From assembly GCA_965197825.1 (NCBI GenBank), contig CBDANW010000002.1:138059-202058 (forward strand): a stretch of 64,000 nt of DNA. The letters are read 5' to 3'. A program made the position numbers and the translations under genes. Each line of letters opens with the position of its first letter. Position 1 is the first letter of the stretch. Positions 40,615 through 58,148 of this stretch are shown one piece after another. The notes beneath the pieces were generated by a model. It did not search any database, had not been told where the DNA came from, and was given only the letters and a program-made list of their open reading frames with translations. This DNA is from Candidatus Marinacidobacterales bacterium (GTDB lineage Bacteria; Acidobacteriota; Vicinamibacteria; Marinacidobacterales; DATDRI01).

Positions 40615-40855
40615 TCATTTTCCTTGGCGAAGGATCGGATCTCGGCGGTGCTTTCGCCATTAAGTGTTGGTGATTTGTACGCATCCCGTCCTGTGCCAAA
40701 ACTCGGCCCCTTTGAAATAGATCATAAATCAGCAGCTTTGTGTTTGGGTTTGCGACTGGGCCAAAAAGACTTGGTGTTGCTCGACTGTTTTCACTTTGCC
40801 GACCGCAACCTTTAGAGTTCTGTTCGTCTTCATCGTCCTTCGGGTCAAGTCTTAA

Positions 40856-42055: not shown

Positions 42056-43454
42056 GGTCAAGTCTTAATTTTCCTGTCAAATCTCCGTACGGTTCCCCGC
42101 GCTCGGTTAAGCTGCTGATTCCTCCGACGTGCCTTGCGGGAGAAGCTCGTTGCGAAGCTCCTCGACTTTCCTAGCGGCGAAGACATCCATCCTCACGCCG
42201 CGCCATTTGTTTGCGACGGCCAAGAGCACAGCGAACGAGAGTTTCATCGCGGCCTCCTCGGTGAAGAAGTGAGGAATGACCTTTGTGCGACGTTTGTGCT
42301 CTCCGAACGTGCGCTCAAGTAGATTCGACGTGCGAAGCCTTTTGTGATGCGCCGCAGGAAGGCGTAGCGCCTGAAGACACGCTTCGAGGGTCTCTTCCAT
42401 GCACTTCATCGCGCTCGGGAATCGTTGACGGTACCGAGCGATCACCTCCCGACCCTTCTTCAGCCCTTGCTCGTAGCTGTTCGCATGGAACGACTCAAGG
42501 ATGGCCGCCTTGAGTTCGTCGCGCACTTCCTTCGGAGCCTTGCCCAGGATGTTCTCGAGGCGGTGCTTCTGGCAACGTTGCTTGAGGCTTCGAGGGAAGA
42601 CCTCTGCGATCGCTTTGAGCACTCCAGGATTCCCGTCCGTCACGATGAGCAACGGCTCCCTCATTCCTCGGGCCACTATCTCCTGCAAGAACCCCTTCCA
42701 GTTCTCGTAGGATTCTCGGTTGCCGACACCGATATGAAGAAGAACTCGCGTCCCATCAGCGCGATAGCCGGTCGCAACGAGGATGGGCTCTTTTCTCTCC
42801 GCTCCTTGGTGGTAGCGCAGGTACGTGCCGTCGAGCTCGAGATACAACAGCTTCTCGTTCGAGAGATCCCGTTTTCGAAACGCCTCGAAATCCTCCGACA
42901 GACACCGTGTGACCCGGCTCACCACCGACTTCGAGACACCCGTGCCGCTCAGCACGTCCGCGAACGTCGCCTCAATGTCACGCGTCGACATCCCGTGGAC
43001 GTACATCCGCGCGATCAGTTCATCGAGTTTCTCGGTCCGGCTCACGTAGGCGTCGAGAATCTTTGACTGAAACACCTTCTCTGTTTCTCGTACCCGCGGC
43101 ACTTGCACCGTCACCGCTCCCTCGCCCGTGAGGACCCGATGCGACTCATACCCGTTGCGTCGTCCCTTCTCCTTCGTCGTTGCCGGAGCGTTCTCATAGT
43201 AGTTTCGACCCAACGCCTCCGTCACCTCGCGCTCCAACGCATATTGAAGCATCATCTGAGCTCCCGACCGGACGATCTCCGAGAGATTCATCTCCCCAAA
43301 TACCAGTTGTTCCTCGAACTGCTTGAGCAATCGCTGACTCGGTAGTACCTTTCCCATGATGTATGGTTCTCCTTTTCTGTCCCCATGACGGGGACGGGTT
43401 TGAGCTTGGGGACCATACATCGTTTTTCTTTGACAGGAATCTTAAGACATCACC
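42056..43454 (-). mobile_element. IS256-family insertion sequence, intact copy 3 (inserted into an SRAP gene fragment)
   Basis: 1399 bp. A 9-bp duplication CTCTAAGGG lies at 42047-42055 and 43455-43463. The flanks rejoin to match 6580-6640. Confidence 0.9.
42107..43357 (-). CDS. IS256-family transposase
   Basis: Identical protein to copy 1 from MGKVLPSQ onward. A 1-nt deletion in the 5' leader changes only the spurious upstream extension. Confidence 0.9.
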   Translation of the reverse strand: MGKVLPSQRLLKQFEEQLVFGEMNLSEIVRSGAQMMLQYALEREVTEALGRNYYENAPATTKEKGRRNGYESHRVLTGEGAVTVQVPRVRETEKVFQSKILDAYVSRTEKLDELIARMYVHGMSTRDIEATFADVLSGTGVSKSVVSRVTRCLSEDFEAFRKRDLSNEKLLYLELDGTYLRYHQGAERKEPILVATGYRADGTRVLLHIGVGNRESYENWKGFLQEIVARGMREPLLIVTDGNPGVLKAIAEVFPRSLKQRCQKHRLENILGKAPKEVRDELKAAILESFHANSYEQGLKKGREVIARYRQRFPSAMKCMEETLEACLQALRLPAAHHKRLRTSNLLERTFGEHKRRTKVIPHFFTEEAAMKLSFAVLLAVANKWRGVRMDVFAARKVEELRNELLPQGTSEESAA

Positions 43455-43689: not shown

Positions 43690-44460
43690 TTACGAAGAGC
43701 CGCCCTTGACCGGATTCAAGAACTCCTGCATCAGCTCGATCGGAAGTGGGAATACGAGCGTCGAGTTCTTTTCGGTTGCGATCTCGGTAAGAGTCTGTAG
43801 ATAGCGTAGCTGGATCCCCATCGGGTGTTGCCCGACGACCTTCGCCGCCGCCGCCAACTTATCAGAGGCTTCGAACTCACCATCGGCGTGGATGATCTTG
43901 GCTCGCTTCTCCCGTTCCGCCTCCGCCTGCTTGGCCAGCGCACGCGTCATTTCGGCCGGTAGGTCGACGTGCTTGACCTCGACGGAGGTGACTTTGATGC
44001 CCCACGGGTCGGTGTGTTTGTCCAGGAGATCCTGGAGCTGCATGTTGAGCCGCTCACGTTCGGATAGAAGATCATCGAGCTCCACTTGACCGAGGACGCT
44101 GCGGAGCGTCGTTTGCGCAAGCTGAGAAGTCGCATGGAGAAAGTTCTCCACCTCGACCACCGCCTTGATCGGATGAACGACACGGAAGAAAACCACCGCG
44201 TTTACCTTCACCGAAACGTTGTCGCGAGTGATCACATCCTGGGGCGGCACGTCGAGAGCCACCAGTCGGAGACTCATCTTCACCATGCGATCGATCGGGC
44301 TGAAGACGAAGATGAGTCCCGGCCCCTTGGGATAGGGCAGGAGCTTCCCGAAGCGAAAGATGACTCCTCGCTCGTACTCGTTGAGAACCTTGATCCAATT
44401 GAGGAAAAAGATTGCGAGAAGAATAAGACCAATAAACCCACCCAACGGTAGCCCAAACAT
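43690..44460 (-). CDS. SPFH/Band-7 (stomatin-like) membrane protein
   Basis: An N-terminal TM is followed by [12 protein letters not shown]...[21 protein letters not shown]...[30 protein letters not shown], a typical SPFH core. Confidence 0.8.
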
Positions 44461-44600: not shown

Positions 44601-44968
44601 CCTTCTAAGTATGGAGTCGCACAAGGACTATTACCCCAGGGAGCTAGCTCGGGCCCGTCTGATGATCGCTACCACACTGGCTAGTGACTTACAAATTTCT
44701 CAGCCTCTTGGGTCGAACGACTCCAACCCTACTCCTCACCCGTAACGGGCTGCGGCTGGATCCAGAGATGGAGCGCGGCTATACCCCGTCCTGTGCCAAA
44801 ACTTGATCCACTGGTAACGTTACAAGCGACCAGTTGACGCGGCGTGGACGGTGGGGCCTGCAACAACCATTGAGCAGAGCTACCCTCCTTGGTCCGGTCG
44901 CAAACACAGACTCTAAATTGCTGATTTATAGTCTATTCCAAAAGGGCTGAGTTTTGGCACAGGACGGG

Positions 44969-45610
44969 AAGGGGTTCTTGCAGGAGATGGTGGCCCGAGG
45001 AATGAGGGAGCCGTTGCTCATCGTGACGGACGGGAATCCTGGAGTGCTCAAAGCGATCGCAGAGGTCTTCCCTCGAAGCCTCAAGCAACGTTGCCAGAAG
45101 CACCGCCTCGAGAACATCCTGGGCAAGGCTCCGAAGGAAGTGCGCGACGAACTCAAGGCGGCCATCCTTGAGTCGTTCCATGCGAACAGCTACGAGCAAG
45201 GGCTGAAGAAGGGTCGGGAGGTGATCGCTCGGTACCGTCAACGATTCCCGAGCGCGATGAAGTGCATGGAAGAGACCTTCGAAGCGTGTCTTCAGGCGCT
45301 ACGCCTTCCTGCGGCGCATCACAAAAGGCTTCGCACGTCGAATCTACTTGAGCGCACGTTCGGAGAGCACAAACGTCGCACAAAGGTCATTCCTCACTTC
45401 TTCACCGAGGAGGCCGCGATGAAACTCTCGTTCGCTGTGCTCTTGGCCGTCGCAAACAAATGGCGCGGCGTGAGGATGGATGTCTTCGCCGCTAGGAAAG
45501 TCGAGGAGCTTCGCAACGAGCTTCTCCCGCAAGGCACGTCGGAGGAATCAGCAGCTTAACCGAGCGCGGGGAACCGTACGGAGATTTGACAGGGAAATTA
45601 AGACTTGACC
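44969..45610 (+). pseudogene. 3' 640 bp of an IS256 copy including the right IR
   Basis: Begins at a TIR-A terminus (44887-44968) with ...KGFLQEMVARGMREPLLIVTDGNPG and runs to ...GACAGGGAAATTAAGACTTGACC. Confidence 0.85.
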
Positions 45611-46980: not shown

Positions 46981-47060
46981 CCGGGTGCTCTTCTTCTCGG
47001 CTCGCCGTGCTATAGGTCTGCCCAGGTGCGAACGGGCCACAGCATGTCGCATTGACCTGA

Positions 47061-47384
47061 CCCCGTCCTGTGCCAAAACTCGGCCCTCTTGAAATAGCCG
47101 ATAAATCAGCAGCTTAGCGTCTGTGTTTTGCGATGGTGCCAAGGGCCGTGGCCTTTACAATCGTCTGGCCCGAGGGTGTTATCTTCGGATCCATCATGAC
47201 GTACCATGTGCAATTCCTACCGTTGGTCAGGCAGCCGTTGTTCGATCGGGCAGCCCTTGCTGCTCACACAGACCTCATGGGTGCTTCCGCCATTAAGTGT
47301 TGGTAAAATGACGCTAAGACTTTACGGTGCATTAAATTACAGACATGGTTTTTCAAAAGGGCCGAGTTTTGGCACAGGACGGGG
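47061..47384. mobile_element. ~320-bp TIR-A MITE, copy 3
   Basis: Near-identical to 5443-5763, in the same orientation. Confidence 0.8.
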
Positions 47385-47640
47385 TGGCGGATGGTGCAGT
47401 TCGGAGCTATCCGGTCTCGGCTAGCAGCCATCAATAACAGGGAATTAACAGGGAATTTGGGCCATTTTGAGGCTGATCGGACCGTTTTTGACGTGGTAAC
47501 CATCTGTATCTCAAATGGTTAGATGGCAATTCCCTGTTCCGAAATAACAGGGCATTTGAGATGACCGAACAGGGAATTTGAAATAGGCGAACAGGGAATC
47601 ACTCTGGAAGAACAGGGAAATGTCACGAGCAGCATGTGAC
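47383..47640 (+). repeat. truncated module X tail plus iteron array, copy 3
   Basis: AACAGGG(A/C)AT occurs at 47436, 47447, 47546, 47568, 47590 and 47611, and inverted at 47528-47538. The upstream part of module X is deleted at the MITE terminus. Confidence 0.75.
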
Positions 47641-48186
47641 GGGCGTCGAACTCGACGTACTATTTGCACAATACGAGCTTTGCACCTCGGCTTAGCTCAC
47701 CGGCGTACACTTAAGCTGTTGATTCATGGGCTATTTCAAAAGGGCTGAGTTTTGGCACGGGAGGAGGATGCCCCGCATCGGATCGATTTTTTCGGAGCAC
47801 AACGGTTCCAGGCTCTCTCCTTAACCGGATTGTGTTAGCATGCACTCGCAGCGTTGCAGAGAGCGACAACGATGGGCACCCACAATTTCGGCTTTCCATC
47901 TCGGTCATCTCGCCGGTTATAGTGCGCCGTGGTCCTGCTGATCCGAGTCATTCCTGGCGGCGACTGTGCCTCCACGCCTTTCCCATTTATATGCCTTCTC
48001 AGACCAAGTACGCGCAGCCGCCGACTGTCTCTCCACCGACGGCGATCCATTCGCGGTGGCCGCGCCGAGAGCAACCGCCAATTCCCCGCCCAGTGCTACC
48101 GACGCCGGGCCCTGCGCTTGAGGAGCGTGGAGGCCACGAAAACGCCGGCGTCCCCGGTCACCAAAACACGAACCCGGAGGATCACC

Positions 48187-48381
48187 ATGACAACCCGACA
48201 AACGCCTCGGGGCGCCAGTGCGCGCCGAGAGGCCACCGACGTTTCAGAGAGGACAACCATCTCCGCTAGCGATGTCGGTGTCACACTTAGGATCAGCGAC
48301 AAGGCTTTGAGAAAACTCGACCAGATTCAAGAGGAAACAATCAAGGCCGCACAGGAGGACCAGAAGTTCTCTTGGCGATGA
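48187..48381 (+). CDS. small (64 aa) possible ribbon-helix-helix protein
   Basis: GGAGGA lies 6 nt upstream of the ATG. VGVTLRISDKALRKLDQIQEE fits a beta-strand/helix RHH start. It ends 54 nt upstream of the 526-aa gene. The assignment is weak. Confidence 0.3.
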   Translation: MTTRQTPRGASARREATDVSERTTISASDVGVTLRISDKALRKLDQIQEETIKAAQEDQKFSWR

Positions 48382-48435
48382 GCTTCCGGTGCGCCCGCCT
48401 CTACCAAGCCATCTCCTCCAACTGTCGGGCCCACA

Positions 48436-50016
48436 ATGAAAATAAAGTACGTTGTAGAGGCACTTGACAGTCAGGACGATTGGTCGCGCTTAGCCGAGGC
48501 GCTCGGCGGTGAGGACTTCGATGTAGTACGCAACATACTCCGACACCTCCGCGTGCTCGACGCGAAGTCCTATGTTCTCGAAGACCCGTACATCGACCGC
48601 GACTACTCGGTGGACTACCTTCATTTCTATGCCCGGACGTTCCGAGCCTACGAGCGTCACTGCAAGCGTGTCCATTTCTTCTCTGACGACATATCTCCGC
48701 TCCTCAGTCGACCCCTATCCACAGATCGACTGGTCGAGATTCAGCGTTTCTCAAACACCACCTATTGCGGCTTCTGTGTCATCCGTCCCTTGTCAACCGC
48801 CCCGATCGGCAGAACGGTCCTCAGAGCGCGGGTCCGCAATGGCTTCGACATGGAGGCAACCGTCACCTGCCGTGCTGACTTCCACGCCCACCTGCTCAGC
48901 GTTGACCTGCAAGTCACTGGTGCGTCCTTCCTCCAACAGGACGCCCGCGTGGGCGCGTGCGCCCAAGTTGCCATCTGGGCAGGCATGCGACACATGCAAG
49001 CACGGCACAGCTACAACTGGGTTTCCGTGGCGGACATCACGCAATTCGCTACGCCGACGACCGCAACCGAGGCCGTTTCCCTTCCCGCCGGATCGGAATT
49101 CCTCACCTCCGAACGGATGATTCGTGCGATCAGTGAAGCCGGCTATCAGCCTCTTTGTTTCCGACGCCCGGCCATCGACCGCGCCATCCTTCCGTACGTC
49201 GAATCGGGAATTCCGGTTATCCTCGGCCTCAATATCGATGGAACTCTCGGCCACGCCGTCACCGTAATCGGCCGCGTCTTCGCTAAACAGGACCCTCCAA
49301 CCAACAGCGCCATCGACTACGTCCCCGCCTACATAGTCCACGACGACCAGAGCGGCCCCTACATGTGGCTCCCCATGGACCGCGACGCCAGCACGACCTT
49401 CTCCTTCACCGACGATACGATTAAACGTGACACGCCCGCCGGACCCATCGAGTTGAATGTTCGCGGCCACGCGGTCTTCGCCGTAGCCCTCATGTCCACC
49501 AGGGTCTTCTCGACCGCGGCAGCCGCCGAGCATTCCGCCTGGGACAGAATCGACGAAAACTTGCACAAGATGCCGGAGACCCGTAGGCTACTTGACGAAC
49601 GCCAACTCCCCGTCAACGCCAGGCTCTTGGACGAGCTGCAGGCAGCGTACAACTCCGACCACATTGTGCTGCGGACATACCTGACGTCCGCTGCCGGCTA
49701 CCGCCACCACCTTGCCGAAGGCTCGGCCAGTGACGACCTCAAGGACGCCTTGCTAGATCTCCACCTGCCCCACTTCACATGGATCACCGAGGTCTCCACG
49801 ATCGATTCCTACAACCAGTCTTCCCCGGGCTTGCGGCGCATCTACGGACATACGGTTCTCGATGCGACCTCGACCGGCAAGGACGGCGACGGCCTACTGG
49901 TGCTCCACCTTCCCGGGCTTCTCGTCACCCACGACATCAATGCACGAGAGTATCCAGAGAAACTCGCCTTGATCAGGGACGACAGGTTGTACGAGTGCCG
50001 CGAGAAGTTACTCTAG
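48436..50016 (+). CDS. 526-aa protein with a papain-like cysteine peptidase signature (unassigned family)
   Basis: FLQQDARVGACAQVAIWAGMRH (Gln then Cys), GTLGHAVTVIGRV (His) and YIVHDDQSGPY (Asp/Asn) occur in the order expected for a papain/C39-like fold. They are preceded by a ~150-aa N-domain (DPYIDRDYSVDYLHFYARTF..CKRVHFF) and followed by a ~190-aa C-domain. Confidence 0.45.
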   Translation: MKIKYVVEALDSQDDWSRLAEALGGEDFDVVRNILRHLRVLDAKSYVLEDPYIDRDYSVDYLHFYARTFRAYERHCKRVHFFSDDISPLLSRPLSTDRLVEIQRFSNTTYCGFCVIRPLSTAPIGRTVLRARVRNGFDMEATVTCRADFHAHLLSVDLQVTGASFLQQDARVGACAQVAIWAGMRHMQARHSYNWVSVADITQFATPTTATEAVSLPAGSEFLTSERMIRAISEAGYQPLCFRRPAIDRAILPYVESGIPVILGLNIDGTLGHAVTVIGRVFAKQDPPTNSAIDYVPAYIVHDDQSGPYMWLPMDRDASTTFSFTDDTIKRDTPAGPIELNVRGHAVFAVALMSTRVFSTAAAAEHSAWDRIDENLHKMPETRRLLDERQLPVNARLLDELQAAYNSDHIVLRTYLTSAAGYRHHLAEGSASDDLKDALLDLHLPHFTWITEVSTIDSYNQSSPGLRRIYGHTVLDATSTGKDGDGLLVLHLPGLLVTHDINAREYPEKLALIRDDRLYECREKLL

Positions 50017-51434
50017 TTCACAATCGGTTTCGTCGGTAGCGTTCCATTGTCGCCCATACCAAACCGGCTGTTGGCAGTCTGCGAACACTCGACGCAGTCC
50101 ACGCCCCGCCGCGGCATGTCGTAACCCGCCACTGCCCGACGGGAGTTCCATCGAAACCATCCGGTCTCTGCGTTGTCGTACTTCAGACCCGTCAAGTGGA
50201 ACAGAAAATCGTCTGCAGCATGCGCGCAGGAGATCGCGTTCATGGTGACCACACTTGGCGCCACTACACCCGGGTCGTTCACGTATGCGTATCCGCGCCT
50301 GGCCGCCTCCGGCACCGCCTCGTCCTGCAAACTTCCAGGGTTGATCAGCCCGTTACACCACAGACACCCTTGCTCGGGTGTAACCATCCGGCTGACGCAG
50401 AACACGTTGCCTACGGTCCCGTCGTCCGCAACCGGAATCTTCGCACCGACCTGGATACCAGGAATGCCGTACTGGTGCACGATCGCGTTGAAGAGCAGTC
50501 GCGCCCCCATGGTGTCCGCCGCGAGGAAAAGGAAGTCGCAGTCTGTGAAACGCGCCGCCACATCCTCGTCGAGAAAGTCCCTCGCCATTGCCTCGATCCG
50601 CGCGTCGCGGTTCGCACGACGAATGTTCCGGGCCGCCATCCTGACTTTGGGTCCCCGCAACCGGTCCGCGATGACCCTCGGCACCCATGAAGGCACGACC
50701 GCATCGCGTCGGCGAGCCCCGATGAGGCGCGGCAGGTTCGTTACATCCGCCCTATCTGGATCTGCGAGTACGAACTCCCCAACGCCAAGCCGGCCCAACA
50801 GTTCAGCCAGTATGGATCCAGCCCCGCCGAGCCCCACGATGCCCACGCGCGTCCGTCGCAACAGATCCTGACCGGCGTCCCCGAACAGGCGACTCTGTCG
50901 GTCGTACATCCCCACAGCCCCGACTTGGGTCTCGGGCATCGGAAACAGTAACTGTCGTCGGTGGCCGACGACAGTCGCCTGGCTCAGCGGAACCCGCGCA
51001 CAACCGGGAAACCAGAGATCCCCAGCCGCTGCGGATCGTGCGAAAACCAACGCGCCGACCGGCATGCCTCGTGCTATGTCGAGGAGAGCCGGATAGCCGC
51101 GTTCGTGCGACGCCATATCGTCCCGCGAAAATCCGACCGAGTCAGTCCCGCCATGGTTGTGAATGGCGAGATACCCCAGCCGCCTGTCCCTCGCACGGAG
51201 AATCCGGCTCTGGATGAACTCTGCCTTCAGCATGCGATAGCCACGCCTCCCCGGCACGTAGTCCACACCGTCCTTCGCCAGATGGATTTCCCTCGCGACG
51301 AGCCTTAGGCCGCGGTCGGACTCGCACGTGCCGGCAAGGATCACTGCACCGTGCTCGTCGCCATCCCCGGGAAACAGGTGCCTCTGGAGTTCGGCGTACA
51401 GCCCGCCAGGGATCGTCAGCCTCCAGGGCTTCAT
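50013..51434 (-). CDS. JAB/MPN metallopeptidase fused to ThiF/MoeB-type E1-like adenylyltransferase
   Basis: JAB half: DEHGAVILAG (Glu) and LAIHNHGGTDSVGFSRDD (HxH...S..D). E1 half: RVGIVGLGGAGSILAELLGRLGVGEFVLADPDRADVTNLPR plus the CLWC and CVEC pairs. The start MKPWRL at 51434 overlaps the upstream stop (ATGA). The track's 142-aa extension is spurious. Confidence 0.8.
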   Translation of the reverse strand: MKPWRLTIPGGLYAELQRHLFPGDGDEHGAVILAGTCESDRGLRLVAREIHLAKDGVDYVPGRRGYRMLKAEFIQSRILRARDRRLGYLAIHNHGGTDSVGFSRDDMASHERGYPALLDIARGMPVGALVFARSAAAGDLWFPGCARVPLSQATVVGHRRQLLFPMPETQVGAVGMYDRQSRLFGDAGQDLLRRTRVGIVGLGGAGSILAELLGRLGVGEFVLADPDRADVTNLPRLIGARRRDAVVPSWVPRVIADRLRGPKVRMAARNIRRANRDARIEAMARDFLDEDVAARFTDCDFLFLAADTMGARLLFNAIVHQYGIPGIQVGAKIPVADDGTVGNVFCVSRMVTPEQGCLWCNGLINPGSLQDEAVPEAARRGYAYVNDPGVVAPSVVTMNAISCAHAADDFLFHLTGLKYDNAETGWFRWNSRRAVAGYDMPRRGVDCVECSQTANSRFGMGDNGTLPTKPIVN

Positions 51435-51823
51435 GTTGGCCTCTTCATCCAGCGGATGACCTTCAGCAACTTCAACGCCGCCGTGTCCGTCTCGGGGTTC
51501 AGCCTGTTCGATCGGCGCGAGACCTGGATAGCCGGTTGGCCTCGAAACGCCCCCGTCCCGAAGCCGCCTCCCAGACCGCCGCCGTCTGACCGCACCAAGT
51601 CCGCGTTCGTGAAGTGCGGATACACGTCGGCGTACGGGTACTGGAAGGTGATCTGGAAGCCGATCCAAACCTCGGCTTGCACGTAGGGGCAACCCATGGG
51701 GATGTCCTTCACCACCACGACTGCCCCGCCAGAACCGTCCGATTCCGCCTCCACGGCACACTGGTCGAACGTACGACGGATCTCCTCGATTGCCGTGGTC
51801 ACCCCGGGAACGATCATGCTCAT
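51431..51823 (-). CDS. prokaryotic E2/UBC-fold-like protein (130 aa)
   Basis: VWIGFQITFQYPYADVYPHFTN resembles the E2/RWD core strand-turn (YP..P.F). Its position between the Ubl and E1 genes, with ATGA overlaps on both sides, supports this. The only cysteines are C22 and C45. Confidence 0.55.
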   Translation of the reverse strand: MSMIVPGVTTAIEEIRRTFDQCAVEAESDGSGGAVVVVKDIPMGCPYVQAEVWIGFQITFQYPYADVYPHFTNADLVRSDGGGLGGGFGTGAFRGQPAIQVSRRSNRLNPETDTAALKLLKVIRWMKRPT

Positions 51824-52089
51824 GAGTTGTCGTCGTTCTCGATGGCGAGGAACCGATCATTGGAATGCACCTCGATGGACTCTTCGTCCCCGACCAGTTC
51901 CGTCTTCCCGCCGCCGAGTTCGATGCTCAGCACGAAGTCCTCCTTGATGTTCACACCTTGATCGATCGCCGCCTTCTTGATGCTCTCGCCCGTCTGCTTC
52001 GACCTATCGAGTACCACCGGCTTGTCGTTCAACGCGATTTCGACCTTCCCGTCGTCGATCCCGCCCTTCACATCTTCATCGCTTGCCAT
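51820..52089 (-). CDS. ubiquitin-like beta-grasp protein of the 'multiubiquitin' type (single domain, 89 aa)
   Basis: KVEIALNDKPVVLDRSKQTGESIKKAAIDQGVNIKEDFVLSIELGGGKTELVGDEESIEVHSNDRFLAIEND matches the pattern of prokaryotic Ubl proteins encoded with E2 and E1-JAB genes. It is the first gene of the operon. Confidence 0.6.
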   Translation of the reverse strand: MASDEDVKGGIDDGKVEIALNDKPVVLDRSKQTGESIKKAAIDQGVNIKEDFVLSIELGGGKTELVGDEESIEVHSNDRFLAIENDDNS

Positions 52090-52120
52090 GTCTCCACCCC
52101 TTTCAAAGTTGGCTTCTAAT

Positions 52121-52141
52121 TGCTATAATGAAATTATAGCA
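52121..52141. promoter_or_regulatory. 9-3-9 palindrome containing two back-to-back TATAAT boxes (divergent promoter/operator)
   Basis: TGCTATAAT-GAA-ATTATAGCA lies in an AT-rich 74-bp gap between the Ubl operon (start 52089) and the XRE gene (start 52164). TTCAAA lies 16 nt upstream of the plus-strand TATAAT. The direct repeat GCATATATGA occurs at 52139-52148 and 52158-52167. Confidence 0.6.
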
Positions 52142-52163
52142 TATATGACTAAGGATTGCATAT

Positions 52164-52553
52164 ATGAAATATAGAGAACACCGCACGGAACGTTTCGATG
52201 TCGCCGCGCTACACGCCGCAATGGACTCCGAGCGCCGTTCCCGCCGCCTCACCTGGAAAGATGTGGCGGCGCAGTCGGGCGTCAGCGCATCCACGCTCAC
52301 TCGTCTGTCCCAGGGCCGTCAGCCCGACGTCAACAGCCTCGCAGCCCTCACCGCCTGGCTCGGGATGTCCGCAGACCATTTCATGTGTGCGGAAACCGTT
52401 GACCAGTTCGGCGCAGCAAGCCCCCTTGCCCAGATTTCCTCCATCCTCCATCGAGACCCCCACCTGAATCCCGAGGGGGCGGTTGCCCTTGAGGAGTTAA
52501 TCCGGGCCACGTATGCGCGTATAAGAACTGACAGCGAGCCAGCAACAGACTGA
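52164..52553 (+). CDS. XRE-family HTH transcriptional regulator (129 aa) divergent from the Ubl operon
   Basis: LTWKDVAAQSGVSASTLTRLSQGRQPDVNSLAALTAWLGMSADHF is an HTH_3/31 domain. A ~55-aa C-terminal extension follows. Confidence 0.75.
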   Translation: MKYREHRTERFDVAALHAAMDSERRSRRLTWKDVAAQSGVSASTLTRLSQGRQPDVNSLAALTAWLGMSADHFMCAETVDQFGAASPLAQISSILHRDPHLNPEGAVALEELIRATYARIRTDSEPATD

Positions 52554-52674
52554 CCCCTGCCCGTCGCCCCGCTCCTCCCGTCTAGTCAGAATACTCGAAC
52601 GCCCAGCGGGTCAGCAGTTTGCACCTTTCCAAAGGCCGCTTGAATCCGCCATCGCGGTCGGATACGTATTCCTG

Positions 52675-52943: not shown

Positions 52944-53059
52944 GGTCGGAAGCCAGCCCTGCGGCGCGAAATACCCTGGATTCTGCGCGGATTCCAAGGG
53001 CGTCTAAGCTGCTGATTTGTGGTCTATTTCAAAAAGGCCGAGTTTTGGCACAGGACGGG
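52944..53059. repeat. solo TIR-A IS terminus abutting a truncated transposase gene
   Basis: The same 115-bp variant as 7068-7182. It points into the transposase gene at codon ~17. Confidence 0.75.
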
Positions 53060-54082
53060 GTCAACCGCCACCAGCAGGATGTGATCGACTACCTGCAAGA
53101 GGAGAACCGTGTGCTCCGAGCCGGGCTTCGGGGCAAGCGTCTCAGGCTCTCTGACGACGACCGGCGTAGGCTTGCCGTCAAGGCCCAGGCTTTGGGCCGC
53201 GAGGCGCTGGCCCAGATTGCGTCCGTTGCCACACCCGCTACGCTTCTGCGTTGGTACCGCTGCCTCATCGCAGCCAAGTACGATGGCAGCAAGAACCGGA
53301 GCCCAGGCCGACCTCCGACGGCGAAGGACATCCGTGAGCTCATGGTACGCATGGCGCGGGAGAACCCGACGTGGGGATATACGCGTCTGCAGGGCGCACT
53401 CAAGAACCTCGGATATGAACTCGGACACAACACCATCAAGAGGCTCCTCGCCGAGCACGGTATCGCGCCGGCTCCGGAGCGGGGCAAGAGCATGTCGTGG
53501 AGCACCTTCCTCAAGGCTCATTGGGGCGCTATCGCTGCGACAGACCTGTTCACCGTCGAGGTTGTGAACCCGTTCGGGCTCGTCCTCTACCATGTCCTGT
53601 TTGTCATCGATATCGCCACTCGCTGCGTGTGCATCGGTGGGATGACCTCAGACCCCAACGGGGAGTGGATGAAGCAGGTGGCAAGAAACCTCACTGACAT
53701 GTGGGATGGTTTTCTCCTTGGCAAGCGATACCTCATCCACGACCGGGACCCGCTATTCACCGAGGCGGTACGTGGACTCTTGAGAGATTCAGGCGTGAAG
53801 CCCCTGCGCCTTCCCGCCAATAGTCCGAATCTGAACGCCTACGCGGAAAGATTCGTTCTCTCCATATGTCGAGAATGTCTCGACCGTTTCGTACCTCTCA
53901 GTGAGGGACACCTGCGGACAGCGGTAACCGAATATGTCGTGCACTATCACACCGAACGGAACCACCAAGGCATCGGCAACGAGCTCATCACACCTCTGCC
54001 GGCAAGCGTGAAAGACGCTGGCCCCGTCGTGTCGCGAGAGCGACTTGGAGGCATTCTCAACTACTACTACCGTGCCGCATAG
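53060..54082 (+). pseudogene. rve (integrase-core) transposase missing its first ~16 codons
   Basis: [20 protein letters not shown]...[32 protein letters not shown]...[10 protein letters not shown]...[17 protein letters not shown]...[10 protein letters not shown]. The track ORF start at 52832 reads through unrelated IS debris. Confidence 0.75.
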
Positions 54083-54313
54083 ATTGTCGTCGGCGACGGT
54101 CGCCCCTCGGTGGGCTCGACCGGCGTAGTGTGGAAACACAGCTTCAGGAACACGCTTGGATATTCGCTCTCGACCAGGTGGTCGTCTGCATGGTGACGAC
54201 CCGTCCACCCAAGACGATTGTAGAGCCTACGGCCCTTGGCACGGTCGCAAACACAGACTCTAAGCTGCTGATTTATCGTTTATTTCAAAAGGGCTGAGTT
54301 TTGGCACAGGACG
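53060..54313 (+). mobile_element. rve-type (IS481/IS3-like) TIR-A insertion sequence lacking its left ~200 bp
   Basis: Transposase body plus a ~135-bp right end finishing ...CTAAGCTGCTGATTTATCGTTTATTTCAAAAGGGCTGAGTTTTGGCACAGGACG. The left end is represented only by the fragment at 20586-20792. Confidence 0.75.
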
Positions 54314-54682
54314 CCGTAGGGTCTTAGCGTCATCTCACCAACACTTAATGGCGGAAGCACCCGGAGAATTCAGAAGGCGCTATTGGCGGCGGGTCATCCA
54401 GTAGACGAGTTCGGGCATTCGCGTCCGACTGCATAGAGTCCTGTCCGCCCCGCCTATCGCGGAGCACCCGTGGCCGAATCACGGCGGAGGACAACGATGG
54501 AGCCTGACCAGAAGCCCGCTGCGCCGGACGGTTCCCCCGCTGCTGCTCAGGGTGCCGACTATAATGATGATGAAGGACACGCAACCGATCCCGTCCTGTT
54601 CCAAAACTAGGCTCTTTTGAAATAGGCCATTGCGTTTTCGGCCAAATTGGCAAAATTGACGCTACAATAAATGGAGAGTTGC

Positions 54683-54886
54683 ATGCAGACCCTGAGCGCG
54701 AAAGACGCAAAATACGGCTTCGGACGGCTGATCGACCTTGCCCGCGCCGAGCCGCTTGCGGTGACTAAGCATGGGCGGCCAGTTGTTGTTGTGCTCTCGG
54801 TAGAGGAATACGAGCGGCTGAAGGCGCTGGAGAGCACCAGTGCTGGAGAAAAAGACGAGAGGGCAGAAAAGACCGATAGCGAATGA
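54683..54886 (+). CDS. Phd/YefM-family antitoxin-like protein (67 aa), no cognate toxin
   Basis: MQTLSAKDAKYGFGRLIDLARAEPLAVTKHGRPVVVVLSVEEYERLKAL. GGAGAG lies 5 nt upstream of the ATG at 54683. The stop overlaps the hsdM start (ATGA). Confidence 0.75.
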   Translation: MQTLSAKDAKYGFGRLIDLARAEPLAVTKHGRPVVVVLSVEEYERLKALESTSAGEKDERAEKTDSE

Positions 54887-57002
54887 TAGCGGACCACCTG
54901 ATCGGCATCGAGCAGTTCGAGGCGAACCTCTGGAAGATCGCGGATAACCTGCGGGCGAATTCGAACCTCGCGTCGAACGAGTATTTCATGCCCATACTGG
55001 GCCTGATCTTCCTGCGGCACGCGACGAACCGCTACTACGAAGCGATGGCGGCGATCGAAGAAGACAGGACCGCAGGCAGGATGCCGGAGCGCCCACTAAT
55101 CGAAGCCGATTTCACCCGGCGCCGCGCGCTGATGCTACCCGAGGCGGCGCGCTATGACGTTCTGCTGGAGATGCCCAAGGATGGCAATCTCGGCGCTACA
55201 GTGAACGCCGCCATGGAAGCCGTGGAAGATCACTTCCCGCCGCTCGCGGGCCAACTCCCGAAGGACTACGAGCACTTCGAGGACGATGTCCTGGAAGCAA
55301 TGATGCGGACCTTCGATTCCGAGGCGCTGCGCACGGCCTCGGGTGACGTGTTCGGCCGCATCTACGAATATTTCCTCACGCAGTTCTCGAAGGAGGGCGC
55401 ACACGACAACGGCGAGTTCTTCACCCCGCCTTCGATCGTCCAGACTATCGTCAACGTCATCGAGCCCGACCACGGTGTCGTCCTCGACCCCGCCTGCGGC
55501 TCGGGCGGCATGTTTGTGCAATCGAGTCACTTTATCGAGGACGAGGGCGAGGACACGATGAAGCGGGTTACGTTCTACGGCCACGAGAAGAACGAGACCA
55601 CCGCGAAGCTGGCCCAGATCAACCTCGCCGTTCATGGGCTGCAGGGCACCATTCGAGCCGGGAACGAAGCCATCACTTACTACAAAGACCCGCACGAACT
55701 CGTCGGCAAGTGCGATTTCGTCATGGCCAATCCGCCGTTCAACGTGGACGAAGTGGATGCCGAGAAGGTCAAGGGCGACAAGCGCCTGCCGTTCAGCCTG
55801 CCCGGAGTGAACAAGTCGAAGAAGGTCTCCAACGCCAATTACTTGTGGCTCTCCTATTTCTACAGCTACCTGAACGAAACCGGCCGGGCCGGGGTCGTCA
55901 TGTCGTCGCAGGCTTCCAGCGCCGGGCGAGCCGGGCGAGACGAGGCCAAAGTGAGACAGAAGCTGGTCGAGAGCGGCGCCCTCGACGTGATGCTCGATAT
56001 CCGCGGCAACTTCTTCTACACCCGCACCGTGCCCTGTCAGCTCTGGTTTTTCGACCGGGCGAAGGAGCGAGACCCCGAGCGGGTCGATCACGTCTTGATG
56101 CTCGATGCGCGCAATATCTATCGCAAGATCTCGCGTGCCATCTTCGACTTTAGCCCGGAGCAGCAGAAGAACATCGCCGCCATCGTCTGGCTCTATCGGG
56201 GGCAGTCGGATCGCTTTCTCAAGCTGGTGGAGACCTATCTCGGGCAGGCCATCGCGGAAGGGCAGGCGACCGACGAGCCGCTGGCGGTGCTTGAGGATGC
56301 CCTCGGCAAGCTGATCGATCTGGCCGAACCCTTTGCGACCGGGAAGCACGATCCTGACCCGCTAGCCGAGACCTGGGAGGAGCTAACCTCCGCACAGGCC
56401 ACATTATCGGCCGACATAGAAGCGTTAGCGGCCGAAGTTGCAGCGCGAGCCGCCAACTGGAACGAGAGTGGGAGCGAAGGAGGGAGGGACAATGCCGCCC
56501 TCCATGCGGTACGTGAAGGTCTGCGCGACATGGCCGAACGCTGCCGGGACCTGACCAAGCAGATCGATCTAGCGGTGAAGCTCGCGGGGCGCGTAGTCGA
56601 TATCGCCGTGAAGGAACTTGACGCGCGGGAATCGGACCACTGGGACAGTACCGACATCAACAAAGCGCGCAAGGCGCTGGAGGGCGTACGGGCTGGGGCC
56701 GTCGAATCGATGCGCCAAGCGCGCTACTTCGTCCGCCAAGCTGACTGGCTACAGGAGCGGTTTCCCGATGCCGAATTGCGGGATGTCGAGGGGCTGGTGA
56801 AGCTGGCCGACCGCGCTGAGATCGAAGCACATGACTGGAGCCTGACGCCCGGCCGCTATGTCGGAGTCGCGCCAGACGACGCGGACGAAGATTTCGATTT
56901 CGAAGTGGCTCTGCGGTCCATTCACATCGACTTGAAGGGGCTGAACGAGGAAGCGGCGGAACTCGCAGTGCGAATCACAAGGAACTTCGAGGAGTTAGGG
57001 GC

Positions 57003-57006
<4 letters not shown>
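54883..57006 (+). CDS. hsdM: type I restriction-modification system methyltransferase subunit
   Basis: N-terminal HsdM domain (LWKIADNLRANSNLASNEYFMPILGLIFLRHA), motif X EFFTPPSIV, motif I VLDPACGSGGMFVQS and motif IV FVMANPPFNV. Confidence 0.9.

Positions 57007-58148
<1,142 letters not shown>

Follow-up and report, generated by a model that had tools for sequence, protein, structure and literature searches.

The 64,000-nucleotide (nt) stretch analysed here, called the window throughout (Candidatus Marinacidobacterales bacterium, assembly GCA_965197825.1, contig CBDANW010000002.1, positions 138,059 to 202,058), encodes a 526-amino-acid (aa) protein whose central domain is shown, by alignment and structure prediction, to be a papain-fold (clan CA-type) cysteine peptidase with an intact predicted Gln168-Cys175-His273-Asp304 set. 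Judged from these predictions, the gene product is almost certainly a working papain-type cysteine protease. Its gene is joined with a small open reading frame (ORF) upstream of it in a two-gene module, which is what evolves as a unit. In the window the module lies in a six-gene cassette that moves horizontally as a block, and the comparisons support the identification of the cassette's remaining core as a conjugation operon of the Bub Type I-like kind, which handles a ubiquitin-like protein (Ubl). They likewise support a linkage of the module with operons of Ubl, E1 and JAB genes that is recurrent but non-obligatory. The finding is an unnamed clan CA-type family and a variant of a Bub-type cassette, and its chemistry is not of a new kind. 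No paper describing the protease family or its partner turned up in the literature searched.

The peptidase family and its predicted fold

The gene, its three domains and the codons of the proposed catalytic residues are located as follows; all four residues are invariant in the alignments A2 and A3 described below.

48436-50016, plus strand: target gene, ATG start, 526 aa, three domains
48436-48930, plus strand: N-domain, aa 1-165
48931-49509, plus strand: papain-like peptidase domain, aa ~166-358, the central part
49510-50013, plus strand: C-domain, aa ~359-526
48937-48939, plus strand: codon of Gln168, proposed oxyanion-hole residue, 7 residues before the nucleophile
48958-48960, plus strand: codon of Cys175, proposed nucleophile, at the N-terminus of helix 175-191
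49252-49254, plus strand: codon of His273, proposed general base, in strand 270-283
49345-49347, plus strand: codon of Asp304, proposed third triad member, in the turn between strands 298-303 and 307-313

The first-pass annotation of the window had singled out this ORF for its papain-like order of Gln, Cys, His and Asp, and ORF and order are present as it described: FLQQDARVGACAQVAIW occupies aa 165-181, GHAVTVIG aa 272-279 and VHDDQSGPY aa 301-309, and the N-domain motif that it quoted lies at aa 50-82. The residues were followed through three alignments of relatives, namely A1, a shallow alignment at 71% identity or more; A2, with 41 full-length family members of identity down to 24%; and A3, with 82 sequences of 32-88% identity, in which relatives of 32-65% were added to widen A1. 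Only 14 columns are invariant in A2. Gln168, Cys175, His273 and Asp304 are among them, as are Asp54, Arg78 and Phe82 in the N-domain and Trp449 and Asp476 in the C-domain. The same set of four is invariant in A3 and is kept in a Pseudomonas branch of about 27% identity, and Asp303 is nearly invariant among relatives. The proposed Cys, His and Asp are conserved down to 24% identity, and the match of the motifs to the papain order is therefore more than chance.

The papain-like fold, also foreseen in that annotation, is borne out by an AlphaFold2 model and a Foldseek structure search, which agree. The model calculated from A3 (m4dc62ca47dd1) has a predicted local distance difference test score (pLDDT) of 90.4 and a predicted template modelling score (pTM) of 0.92; an earlier model from the shallow A1 had left the central domain at pLDDT <50, and the deeper A3 resolved it. 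As predicted, Cys175 opens its helix against the His-bearing sheet and Asp304 stands at the turn of the next hairpin, which together with the Gln-Cys-His-Asp order is the arrangement of papain-like clan CA-type enzymes. The best matches of the model in the PDB are staphopains (family C47), with 1cv8 first (E 5e-5, probability 1.00), followed by 8oig, 1y4h, 1pxv and the prostaphopain 1x9y, at sequence identities of 11-15%. C39 domains also match, including ComA 3k8u with a template modelling (TM) score on the target of 0.70, ComA and PCAT1 entries up to 0.71, and the LahT-type 6mpz; further matches are AvrRpt2 (C70), the ubiquitin clippase BpJOS, UfSP, ZUFSP and a papain-like toxin. The Ubl-directed enzymes rank under the staphopains and C39 domains (BpJOS E 1.2e-3, UfSP 9.6e-3, Mug105 9e-2), and at the level of sequence the deubiquitinase families Josephin, UfSP and ZUFSP gave no match to the target in single-sequence and profile searches of the PDB.

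The flanking domains, which the earlier reader could not name, stay nameless: the target has no match in Pfam (E<=0.1), NCBIfam, the PADLOC protein models or, by sequence, the PDB, and a search of the PDB and BFVD with the full-length model returned no significant structural match for the N-domain or the C-domain. A cathepsin-L propeptide match to the N-domain in the PDB profile search (E 1.8) is not significant. PF13529 (Peptidase_C39_2) is matched weakly and below threshold by 13 of 41 relatives (best E 0.0025), and some distant relatives carry precomputed PF13529 matches. The C-terminus is modelled as structured, with strands to about aa 521. The protein appears to be cytoplasmic, its N-terminus showing by eye neither signal peptide nor membrane segment.

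The family is large and annotated only as "hypothetical protein". A word-indexed search returned 462 relatives of the target, the top 120 all 71-99% identical, and HMMER, run exhaustively against 1.84 billion cluster representatives, returned 3702 at E<=1e-3 (2735 at E<=1e-10), mostly of 480-600 aa. A tblastn search of 50,697 phage records found no relative, and a phage origin of the protease was dropped. Equating the family with the "predicted metal-binding protein" of the 6c operons of Iyer et al. was rejected, since 6c denotes the CEHH (Type II Bil) operon, in which CEHH is an E2. One 1022-aa sequence (P0132) in which fn3/cadherin-like domains are combined with part of a family member is a probable assembly or gene-call chimera and not an informative fusion.

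The small partner gene and the two-gene module

Upstream of the protease gene lies a short ORF that the first-pass annotation missed.

48187-48381, plus strand: small partner ORF, 64 aa (MTTRQ...QKFSWR, then stop), ending 55 nt ahead of the protease ATG, with a GGAGGA Shine-Dalgarno sequence 7 nt 5' of its ATG
48382-48435, plus strand: spacer between the small ORF and the protease gene, 54 nt, C-rich and G-poor

Several observations support the small ORF as an obligatory, formerly unannotated partner gene of the protease. It is present in 48 of 48 close loci, in 47 of them at 49-67 nt from the protease gene and in the remaining one (L032) at 136 nt. Jackhmmer connects it to ORFs 5' of 21 of 35 distant relatives, and most of the others are visible by eye. 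In the branch of Pseudomonas, Burkholderia and Shewanella, an ORF of 52-56 aa sits 54-68 nt 5' of a protease of 700-780 aa that is only ~27% identical to the target. Spacing is itself conserved, being about 55 nt in most loci, including such ~27%-identical branches (range 49-77 nt, one outlier of 136). The last 40 codons have a ratio of nonsynonymous to synonymous changes (pN/pS) of 0.37, with changes distributed 468/269/920 over the three codon positions, the third dominant. A gene caller reports the ORF in a 99%-identical locus (L096) and in several distant loci.

Conservation is concentrated in the C-terminal half of about 35 aa, whose consensus is VGVTLxISxKALKELDxIQEETIKAAQEDQKFSWR, and it extends to the extreme C-terminus. 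In most loci the partner ends in F-(S/A)-(W/F/L/I)-(R/K) (for example FSWR, FALR or FAFR) or in (F/L)-x-(V/M/F/A)-G, and the type of ending is independent of the presence of an E1 nearby. By eye, the partner is probably short and helical.

The protease gene of the window has no obvious Shine-Dalgarno sequence before its ATG. The spacers of four distant subfamilies form a GC hairpin with a U-run (z -2.9 to -5.0) that ends about 10-20 nt before the protease ATG, at these positions:

L088, 6946-7000: hairpin and U-run
L087, 5945-6000: hairpin and U-run
L083, 5822-5889: hairpin and U-run
L056, 7925-8000: hairpin and U-run

The hairpin of L088 was missed by a consensus terminator scan and revealed by folding. 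Such structures suggest attenuated read-through into the protease gene in these subfamilies.

The cassette and its link to Ubl operons

The protease gene is convergent with an operon on the opposite strand, whose Bub identity had also escaped the first-pass annotation.

48130-52570, both strands: six-gene cassette, ~4.4 kb, of small ORF, protease, JAB-E1, E2-like, Ubl and helix-turn-helix (HTH) genes
50013-51434, minus strand: JAB/JAMM peptidase-E1 fusion, 473 aa from MKPWRL, homologue of Citrobacter BubCD
51431-51823, minus strand: E2-like protein, 130 aa, ATGA overlap with the JAB-E1 start
51820-52089, minus strand: Ubl, a single Multi_ubiq beta-grasp, 89 aa, ATGA overlap with the E2 start
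52164-52553, plus strand: XRE-type HTH gene, 129 aa, HTH_31 and HTH_3 matches, divergent from the Ubl operon

The extent of the cassette was read from the borders of homology. In blastn comparisons the loci with a whole cassette begin to match at 48127-48176 in the closest cases and later in divergent ones, the match mostly ends at 52513-52572, and the compared loci share no homology outside these borders. As the borders are sharp and shared and nothing outside is common, the unit is the 4.4-kb cassette of six genes. A genome scan with A3 gave 79 loci, 46 of the close clade and 33 distant. Across metagenome-assembled genomes (MAGs) of at least eight phyla the nucleotide identity to the window is 64-86% (L004-L049), and protein identity over the cassette loci is 56-84% for the protease, up to 91% for JAB-E1 and 61-93% for the HTH protein. 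The close-clade MAGs belong to Acidobacteriota, Chloroflexota, Alpha- and Gammaproteobacteria, Rhodothermales, Binatia, Nitrospirota, Thermodesulfobacteriota and Spirochaetia; the clade also occurs in Bradyrhizobium and Mesorhizobium isolates and in lineages with sponge- or coral-derived names (Candidatus Poriferihabitaceae, Candidatus Palauibacter poriticola). The distribution points to recent transfer of the cassette across phyla, possibly, to judge from the lineage names, within host-associated communities.

JAB-E1, E2 and Ubl genes are kept in the same arrangement in 38 of the 46 close loci, usually with the HTH gene, and the rest are deletions or remnants. Six decay variants (L010, L020, L024, L026, L031, L036) keep the small ORF and the protease after loss of Ubl genes. 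In L026 the small ORF, protease and HTH genes remain and the Ubl, E2 and E1 genes are excised; in L020 and L024 only E1 remnants are left of these three genes. In L046 it is the protease that is truncated, and the Ubl gene, an E2 fragment and the HTH gene remain.

The identity of the operon follows from its E1. The best PDB match of JAB-E1 is BubCD (9ea4, E 1e-23 over aa 5-413, nearly full length), and its Pfam ThiF match has E 6e-31. Residues E27, H92, H94, S103, D106, R236 and Y382 are invariant in 40 orthologues, and E27, H92, H94, D106, R236 and Y382 correspond to E28, H91, H93, D104, R227 and the catalytic crossover-loop Y370 of BubCD (numbering of PMC11601596). JAB-E1 also has two invariant CxxC pairs, C357/C360 and C447/C450, one of them near the crossover-loop region, together with four other invariant Cys, and Citrobacter-type BubCD is reported without a crossover-loop Cys. 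These pairs could be a structural zinc site of the ThiF/MoeB-like kind or a thiol route. In the E2-like protein no conserved Cys follows the HPN-like motif YPHF, and H70, S102 and S105 are invariant in the orthologue alignments; the window protein has no Pfam, E2-profile or PDB match, and its counterpart on a Mycolicibacterium plasmid matches Prok-E2_E weakly (E 5.7e-4). The Ubl scores 26.7 bits against PF14452 (cutoff 24.5), and its C-terminus, ...FLAIENDDNS, is conserved in orthologues and lacks a terminal Gly. Among the PADLOC models JAB-E1 matches only generic E1-E2 models of the cyclic-oligonucleotide-based antiphage signalling system (CBASS), and the E2-like protein and the Ubl match none. 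A promoter-like site (52102-52129, plus strand) lies near the HTH gene, whose product is probably a repressor.

The gene order of Ubl, stand-alone inactive E2/RWD-like protein and JAB-E1 was described in 2006 for a subset of the 6e operons (PMC1779556), which are now named Type I Bub (PMC11601596). In common with Type I Bub (BubAB, BubCD, BubE), the window operon encodes a homologue of BubCD that retains every catalytic residue, the crossover-loop Tyr among them, and its Ubl is of the Multi_ubiq family. The putative E2 of the operon has no conserved Cys where the catalytic one would be expected. The operon differs in that Ubl and E2 are separate ORFs and not a BubAB fusion, the Ubl lacks a C-terminal Gly, the E1 has the CxxC pairs, a lone HTH gene replaces CapH and CapP, CapW or CapK/S, and a convergent arm of small ORF and protease is added. 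It also lacks BubE (DUF6527), which all described Bub operons carry (PMC11601596): the scan, which covered four cassette proteins besides the target, gave no match, and neither gene calls nor annotations of related loci contain one.

E1-type operons adjoin the protease module in four layouts overall, three with a recognisable Ubl. The stop codons of the target and JAB-E1 genes overlap by 4 nt (50013-50016). Six of the 33 distant loci have a convergent operon of X-E1, JAB and a tandem-beta-grasp Ubl ending in KPQG, with CapH/CapP and a protease ~35% identical to the target, and the 4-nt stop overlap of protease and E1 is kept in at least four of them. The layout of these six (L050, L051, L054, L057, L069, L074) is apparently undescribed: CapH/CapP are divergent and the protease module convergent, and the operon encodes a 176-aa tandem-beta-grasp Ubl ending in KPQG(AS), a Prok-JAB protein and a ~440-aa E1 made of an unknown N-domain and ThiF. 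Another 13 of the 33, in sphingomonads, have E1 and JAB genes, often beside AbiE. About 14 of the 33 have no E1, JAB or Ubl nearby, as is true of five of 11 other distant loci from protein look-up or plasmid search. Stand-alone modules are found as Tn7 cargo beside BrxR, in islands with RES/HEPN/UvrD or integrase genes, and on a conjugative plasmid.

The fullest association is a block of Pseudomonas with the order CapP-CapH, BubA (Multi_ubiq)-BubBD (DUF6791 and ThiF)-BubE (PF20137)-small ORF-protease. It is present at five loci, which represent at least four genome lineages (a P. aeruginosa plasmid, the P. syringae group, P. viridiflava and another), with proteases 69-99% identical and flanks that differ in most loci. 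The module here adjoins a complete canonical Type II Bub operon, in which the dedicated deconjugase BubE is already encoded.

Plasmids of Rhizobium ruizarguesonis, Mycolicibacterium chubuense and Nostoc sp. (L093, L094 and L095) carry CapH/CapP-regulated operons with an unfused Multi_ubiq Ubl, an E2-like protein and a JAB-E1 47-53% identical to that of the window. In these closest plasmid relatives of the JAB-E1 operon neither BubE nor the protease was found; as the PLSDB gene tables are incomplete, the lack of an annotated DUF6527/BubE is not proof of absence. They may represent a Bub subtype without BubE. Convergent hypothetical genes 3' of the plasmid JAB-E1 operons (562 aa in Nostoc, 468 aa in Mycolicibacterium) are unrelated to the target (hhalign probability 0.1), and their products have no informative Pfam match.

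The surroundings of the cassette in the window contain these further features:

40685-40764, 44880-44970, 47044-47128, 47351-47386, 47678-47768, 52971-53063 and 54227-54333: copies of a repeat
42056-42705: IS256/Mutator transposase region, with an inverted partial copy at 44961-45610 (650 nt, 99%), bracketing an SPFH/Band-7 gene
42107-43420 (minus strand), 43690-44460 (minus strand) and 44954-45559 (plus strand): genes of the IS256/Mutator/SPFH region
54671-54886: Phd/YefM antitoxin gene, overlapping the start of the type I restriction-modification genes
54883-57006 and 57003-58148: HsdM and HsdS of type I restriction-modification

The repeat is about 35-90 nt long with the core TTTCAAAAGGGCYGAGTTTTGGCACAGGACGGGG and is present in at least seven copies in both orientations, with direct copies ~370 nt to the left and ~400 nt to the right of the cassette; it may be an element like a miniature inverted-repeat transposable element or the terminal repeats of an insertion sequence. 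The IS256/SPFH layout looks like a composite or decayed transposon, and an rve-type transposase is also near. Transposases, repeats, restriction-modification and Phd genes around the cassette are consistent with a mobile, defence-rich region.

What the module may do

Two groups of papain-fold peptidases invite comparison. The target is like the double-glycine peptidase (C39) domains found in ABC exporters of bacteriocins and peptides (ComA, PCAT1; PF03412/PF13529) in its papain-like fold, its Gln-Cys-His-Asp order, the structural match and the weak PF13529 matches of its relatives. C39 domains recognise an amphipathic helical leader that ends in Gly-Gly, and the target's partner is likewise short, probably helical by eye and conserved at a C-terminus that is often ...xG. 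Unlike C39 proteins, the target stays below the Pfam threshold, has no membrane part and has two extra conserved domains; its partner stops at the would-be cleavage site with no cargo peptide beyond the "leader", and its family is set in defence or mobile islands and Ubl operons. Inspection of the window cassette and of related loci turned up no ABC transporter. Staphopains, the best Foldseek matches, are encoded by genes that are co-transcribed with a dedicated small inhibitor gene, so the layout of protease and small partner parallels that of protease and staphostatin. They differ from the target in sequence (11-15% identity) and in being secreted, whereas the target appears cytoplasmic; their inhibitors, the staphostatins, are beta-barrels and come from a downstream gene, whereas the partner is encoded upstream and looks helical by eye.

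We favour, without calling it probable, a reading in which the small partner keeps the protease, a restrained or latent effector, in check, while the Bub-like machinery is coupled to the pair and regulates it or cooperates with it. The protease would serve a conflict or stress system as its latent proteolytic effector. The tail of the partner would resemble the non-primed side of a clan CA substrate, with Phe or Leu at P4, a hydrophobic residue at P2, Arg/Lys or Gly at P1 and a free carboxylate. The partner could then be a product-like ligand of the peptidase that inhibits or escorts it, comparable to the cleaved subtilisin prodomain, which sits in the protease cleft in this way. It may also be made in excess over the protease, because a hairpin lies between the genes in distant branches and the protease has no obvious Shine-Dalgarno sequence, and an excess would fit the usual logic for the inhibitor of a dangerous enzyme.

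The Bub-like Ubl machinery may tag the partner, the protease or the targets of the protease, as a layer added to the core in the way that Cap2/Cap3 are added to the self-sufficient core of CBASS. Type II CBASS resembles the module in having such a core with or without an added E1/JAB layer, in its defence islands and in its CapH/CapP-type regulators (PMC10097602; PMC11601596). It is unlike the module, which has no nucleotide-signalling enzyme and, in three of the four layouts, has a separate Ubl; moreover, the C-terminus of the target is modelled as structured, as opposed to the flexible tail of the CBASS nucleotidyltransferase (CD-NTase) that Cap2 conjugates. Coupling of the two parts is supported by the full cassette in 38 of 46 close loci, the recurring layouts, the conserved 4-nt overlap and the Pseudomonas block.

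Several points weigh against this reading. We infer the inhibitor or escort role of the partner from sequence logic, its sole basis. The partners of Pseudomonas and Shewanella have differing C-termini and no demonstrable homology to that of the window, and the window spacer has no significant structure or terminator (fold z -0.44, and +0.44 in L012). PADLOC models, as noted, do not match the target, and the many invariant polar residues of its N- and C-domains could point to another activity. On plasmids a protease relative is found in four only, as against about 126 with BubBD-like and about 121 with BubCD-like genes. Given this rarity from the Bub side (four plasmids with a relative to some 120 per Bub E1 type), the module is not a general Bub component, and the idea that it might be one is unsupported.

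Among the alternatives, the one closest to the first-pass annotation is a Ubl-specific peptidase that trims the Ubl C-terminus, deconjugates Ubl or does both, as the analogue of BubE in this cassette, with the JAB domain serving a different linkage or step. The annotation had proposed a deubiquitinase-like or Ubl-processing role from the neighbourhood, and the link to Ubl machinery has proved real and recurrent; the specific role is not established and is partly contradicted, so that we consider it unlikely. Its appeal lies in the papain-like fold with BpJOS, UfSP and ZUFSP among the structural neighbours, in the E1-type operons beside the module, in a Ubl ending in ...ENDDNS without Gly that may need trimming, and in a cassette that, unlike the described Bub operons (PMC11601596), has no BubE. 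The protease genes of both kinds are indeed tied to operons of Multi_ubiq Ubl and ThiF-type E1, yet BubE (DUF6527, PF20137) is a small C4 zinc beta-sandwich with a Ser-His dyad (PMC11601596), whereas the target is papain-fold and has no PF20137 match, and the target is not simply a BubE replacement because in Pseudomonas BubE stands side by side with a target relative. Many family members also have no Ubl, E1 or JAB nearby, both BubE and the protease are missing from the nearest plasmid relatives of the JAB-E1 operon, structural similarity is greatest to C47 and C39 enzymes and not to deubiquitinases, and the protease gene belongs with its small ORF to a separate, convergent transcription unit. 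The Ubl C-termini (ENDDNS, KPQG) are unlike the cognate partner tails, which counts if the tails report subsite preference; nor do they give any sign that the partner mimics a Ubl tail. That the protease is simply a second deubiquitinase is unlikely as well, because the module is older and wider than any single Ubl system, coexists with BubE, is dispensable for sister Bub-like operons and has its own transcription unit.

An autonomous two-gene protease system, of the toxin-antitoxin kind or a defence effector, could merely co-travel with Ubl operons without cross-talk. Stand-alone modules are common, the small ORF and the protease outlast the Ubl genes in decayed cassettes, the association is rare from the Bub side, and defence genes generally cluster in islands. 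Mere co-travelling is nevertheless hard to reconcile with a linkage that recurs in four independent layouts, with a 4-nt convergent stop overlap with the E1 gene kept between clades ~35% identical, with six genes that share sharp borders and are retained together across phyla, or with a Pseudomonas block of Bub and module kept at 69-99% identity amid mostly different flanks; we regard complete autonomy as doubtful.

At the opposite end, some Bub-type pathways might have the module as their output arm, with Ubl conjugation licensing the latent protease or directing it to Ubl-tagged proteins. Licensing might run through the small partner, tagged or removed by means of Ubl, or through tagging of the protease itself. 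This too is a long way from probable.

A role in acyl transfer is very unlikely. Cys175 would be acylated by the activated C-terminus of Ubl or partner, forming a thioester, and hand the acyl group on to the amine of a target; the protease would then act as an E2/E3-like ligase or a transpeptidase and furnish the thiol chemistry that is absent from Bub-type E1 and E2. Papain-fold enzymes do form acyl-thioester intermediates, and the partner has a strictly conserved free C-terminus, often Gly. The E1 and E2 of Bub act through Tyr/Ser oxyesters without catalytic Cys (PMC11601596), and the window E2-like protein lacks Cys at the expected position. Stand-alone modules, however, have no E1 to activate a free carboxylate, the ending of the partner is uncorrelated with the presence of E1, and the literature searched offers no precedent. 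A catalytically silent scaffold or sensor, such as a pseudo-protease that binds Ubl or peptides, is scarcely credible: two large extra domains with invariant polar residues would suit it and such proteins are common in signalling, but the invariance of all four catalytic-type residues across relatives, including the 27%-identical Pseudomonas branch, is not expected of a pseudo-enzyme.

With these results a large unnamed family gains a predicted fold and active site and a partner gene, and the cassette clearly exemplifies how a putative conflict system passes between phyla. Its deletion variants are useful natural controls for the dependency between the parts, and the Pseudomonas loci, being in cultivable hosts, are tractable systems. 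The biochemistry of Bub pathways is characterised, whereas no target, effector or phage-defence phenotype is known for them (PMC11601596; PMC13373217, June 2026). Although most Bub operons are without it, the module offers a concrete handle on what Bub-type conjugation controls. If it were the output arm of such pathways, it would be the first testable effector for Bub operons and a bacterial switch analogous to ubiquitin-dependent proteolysis.

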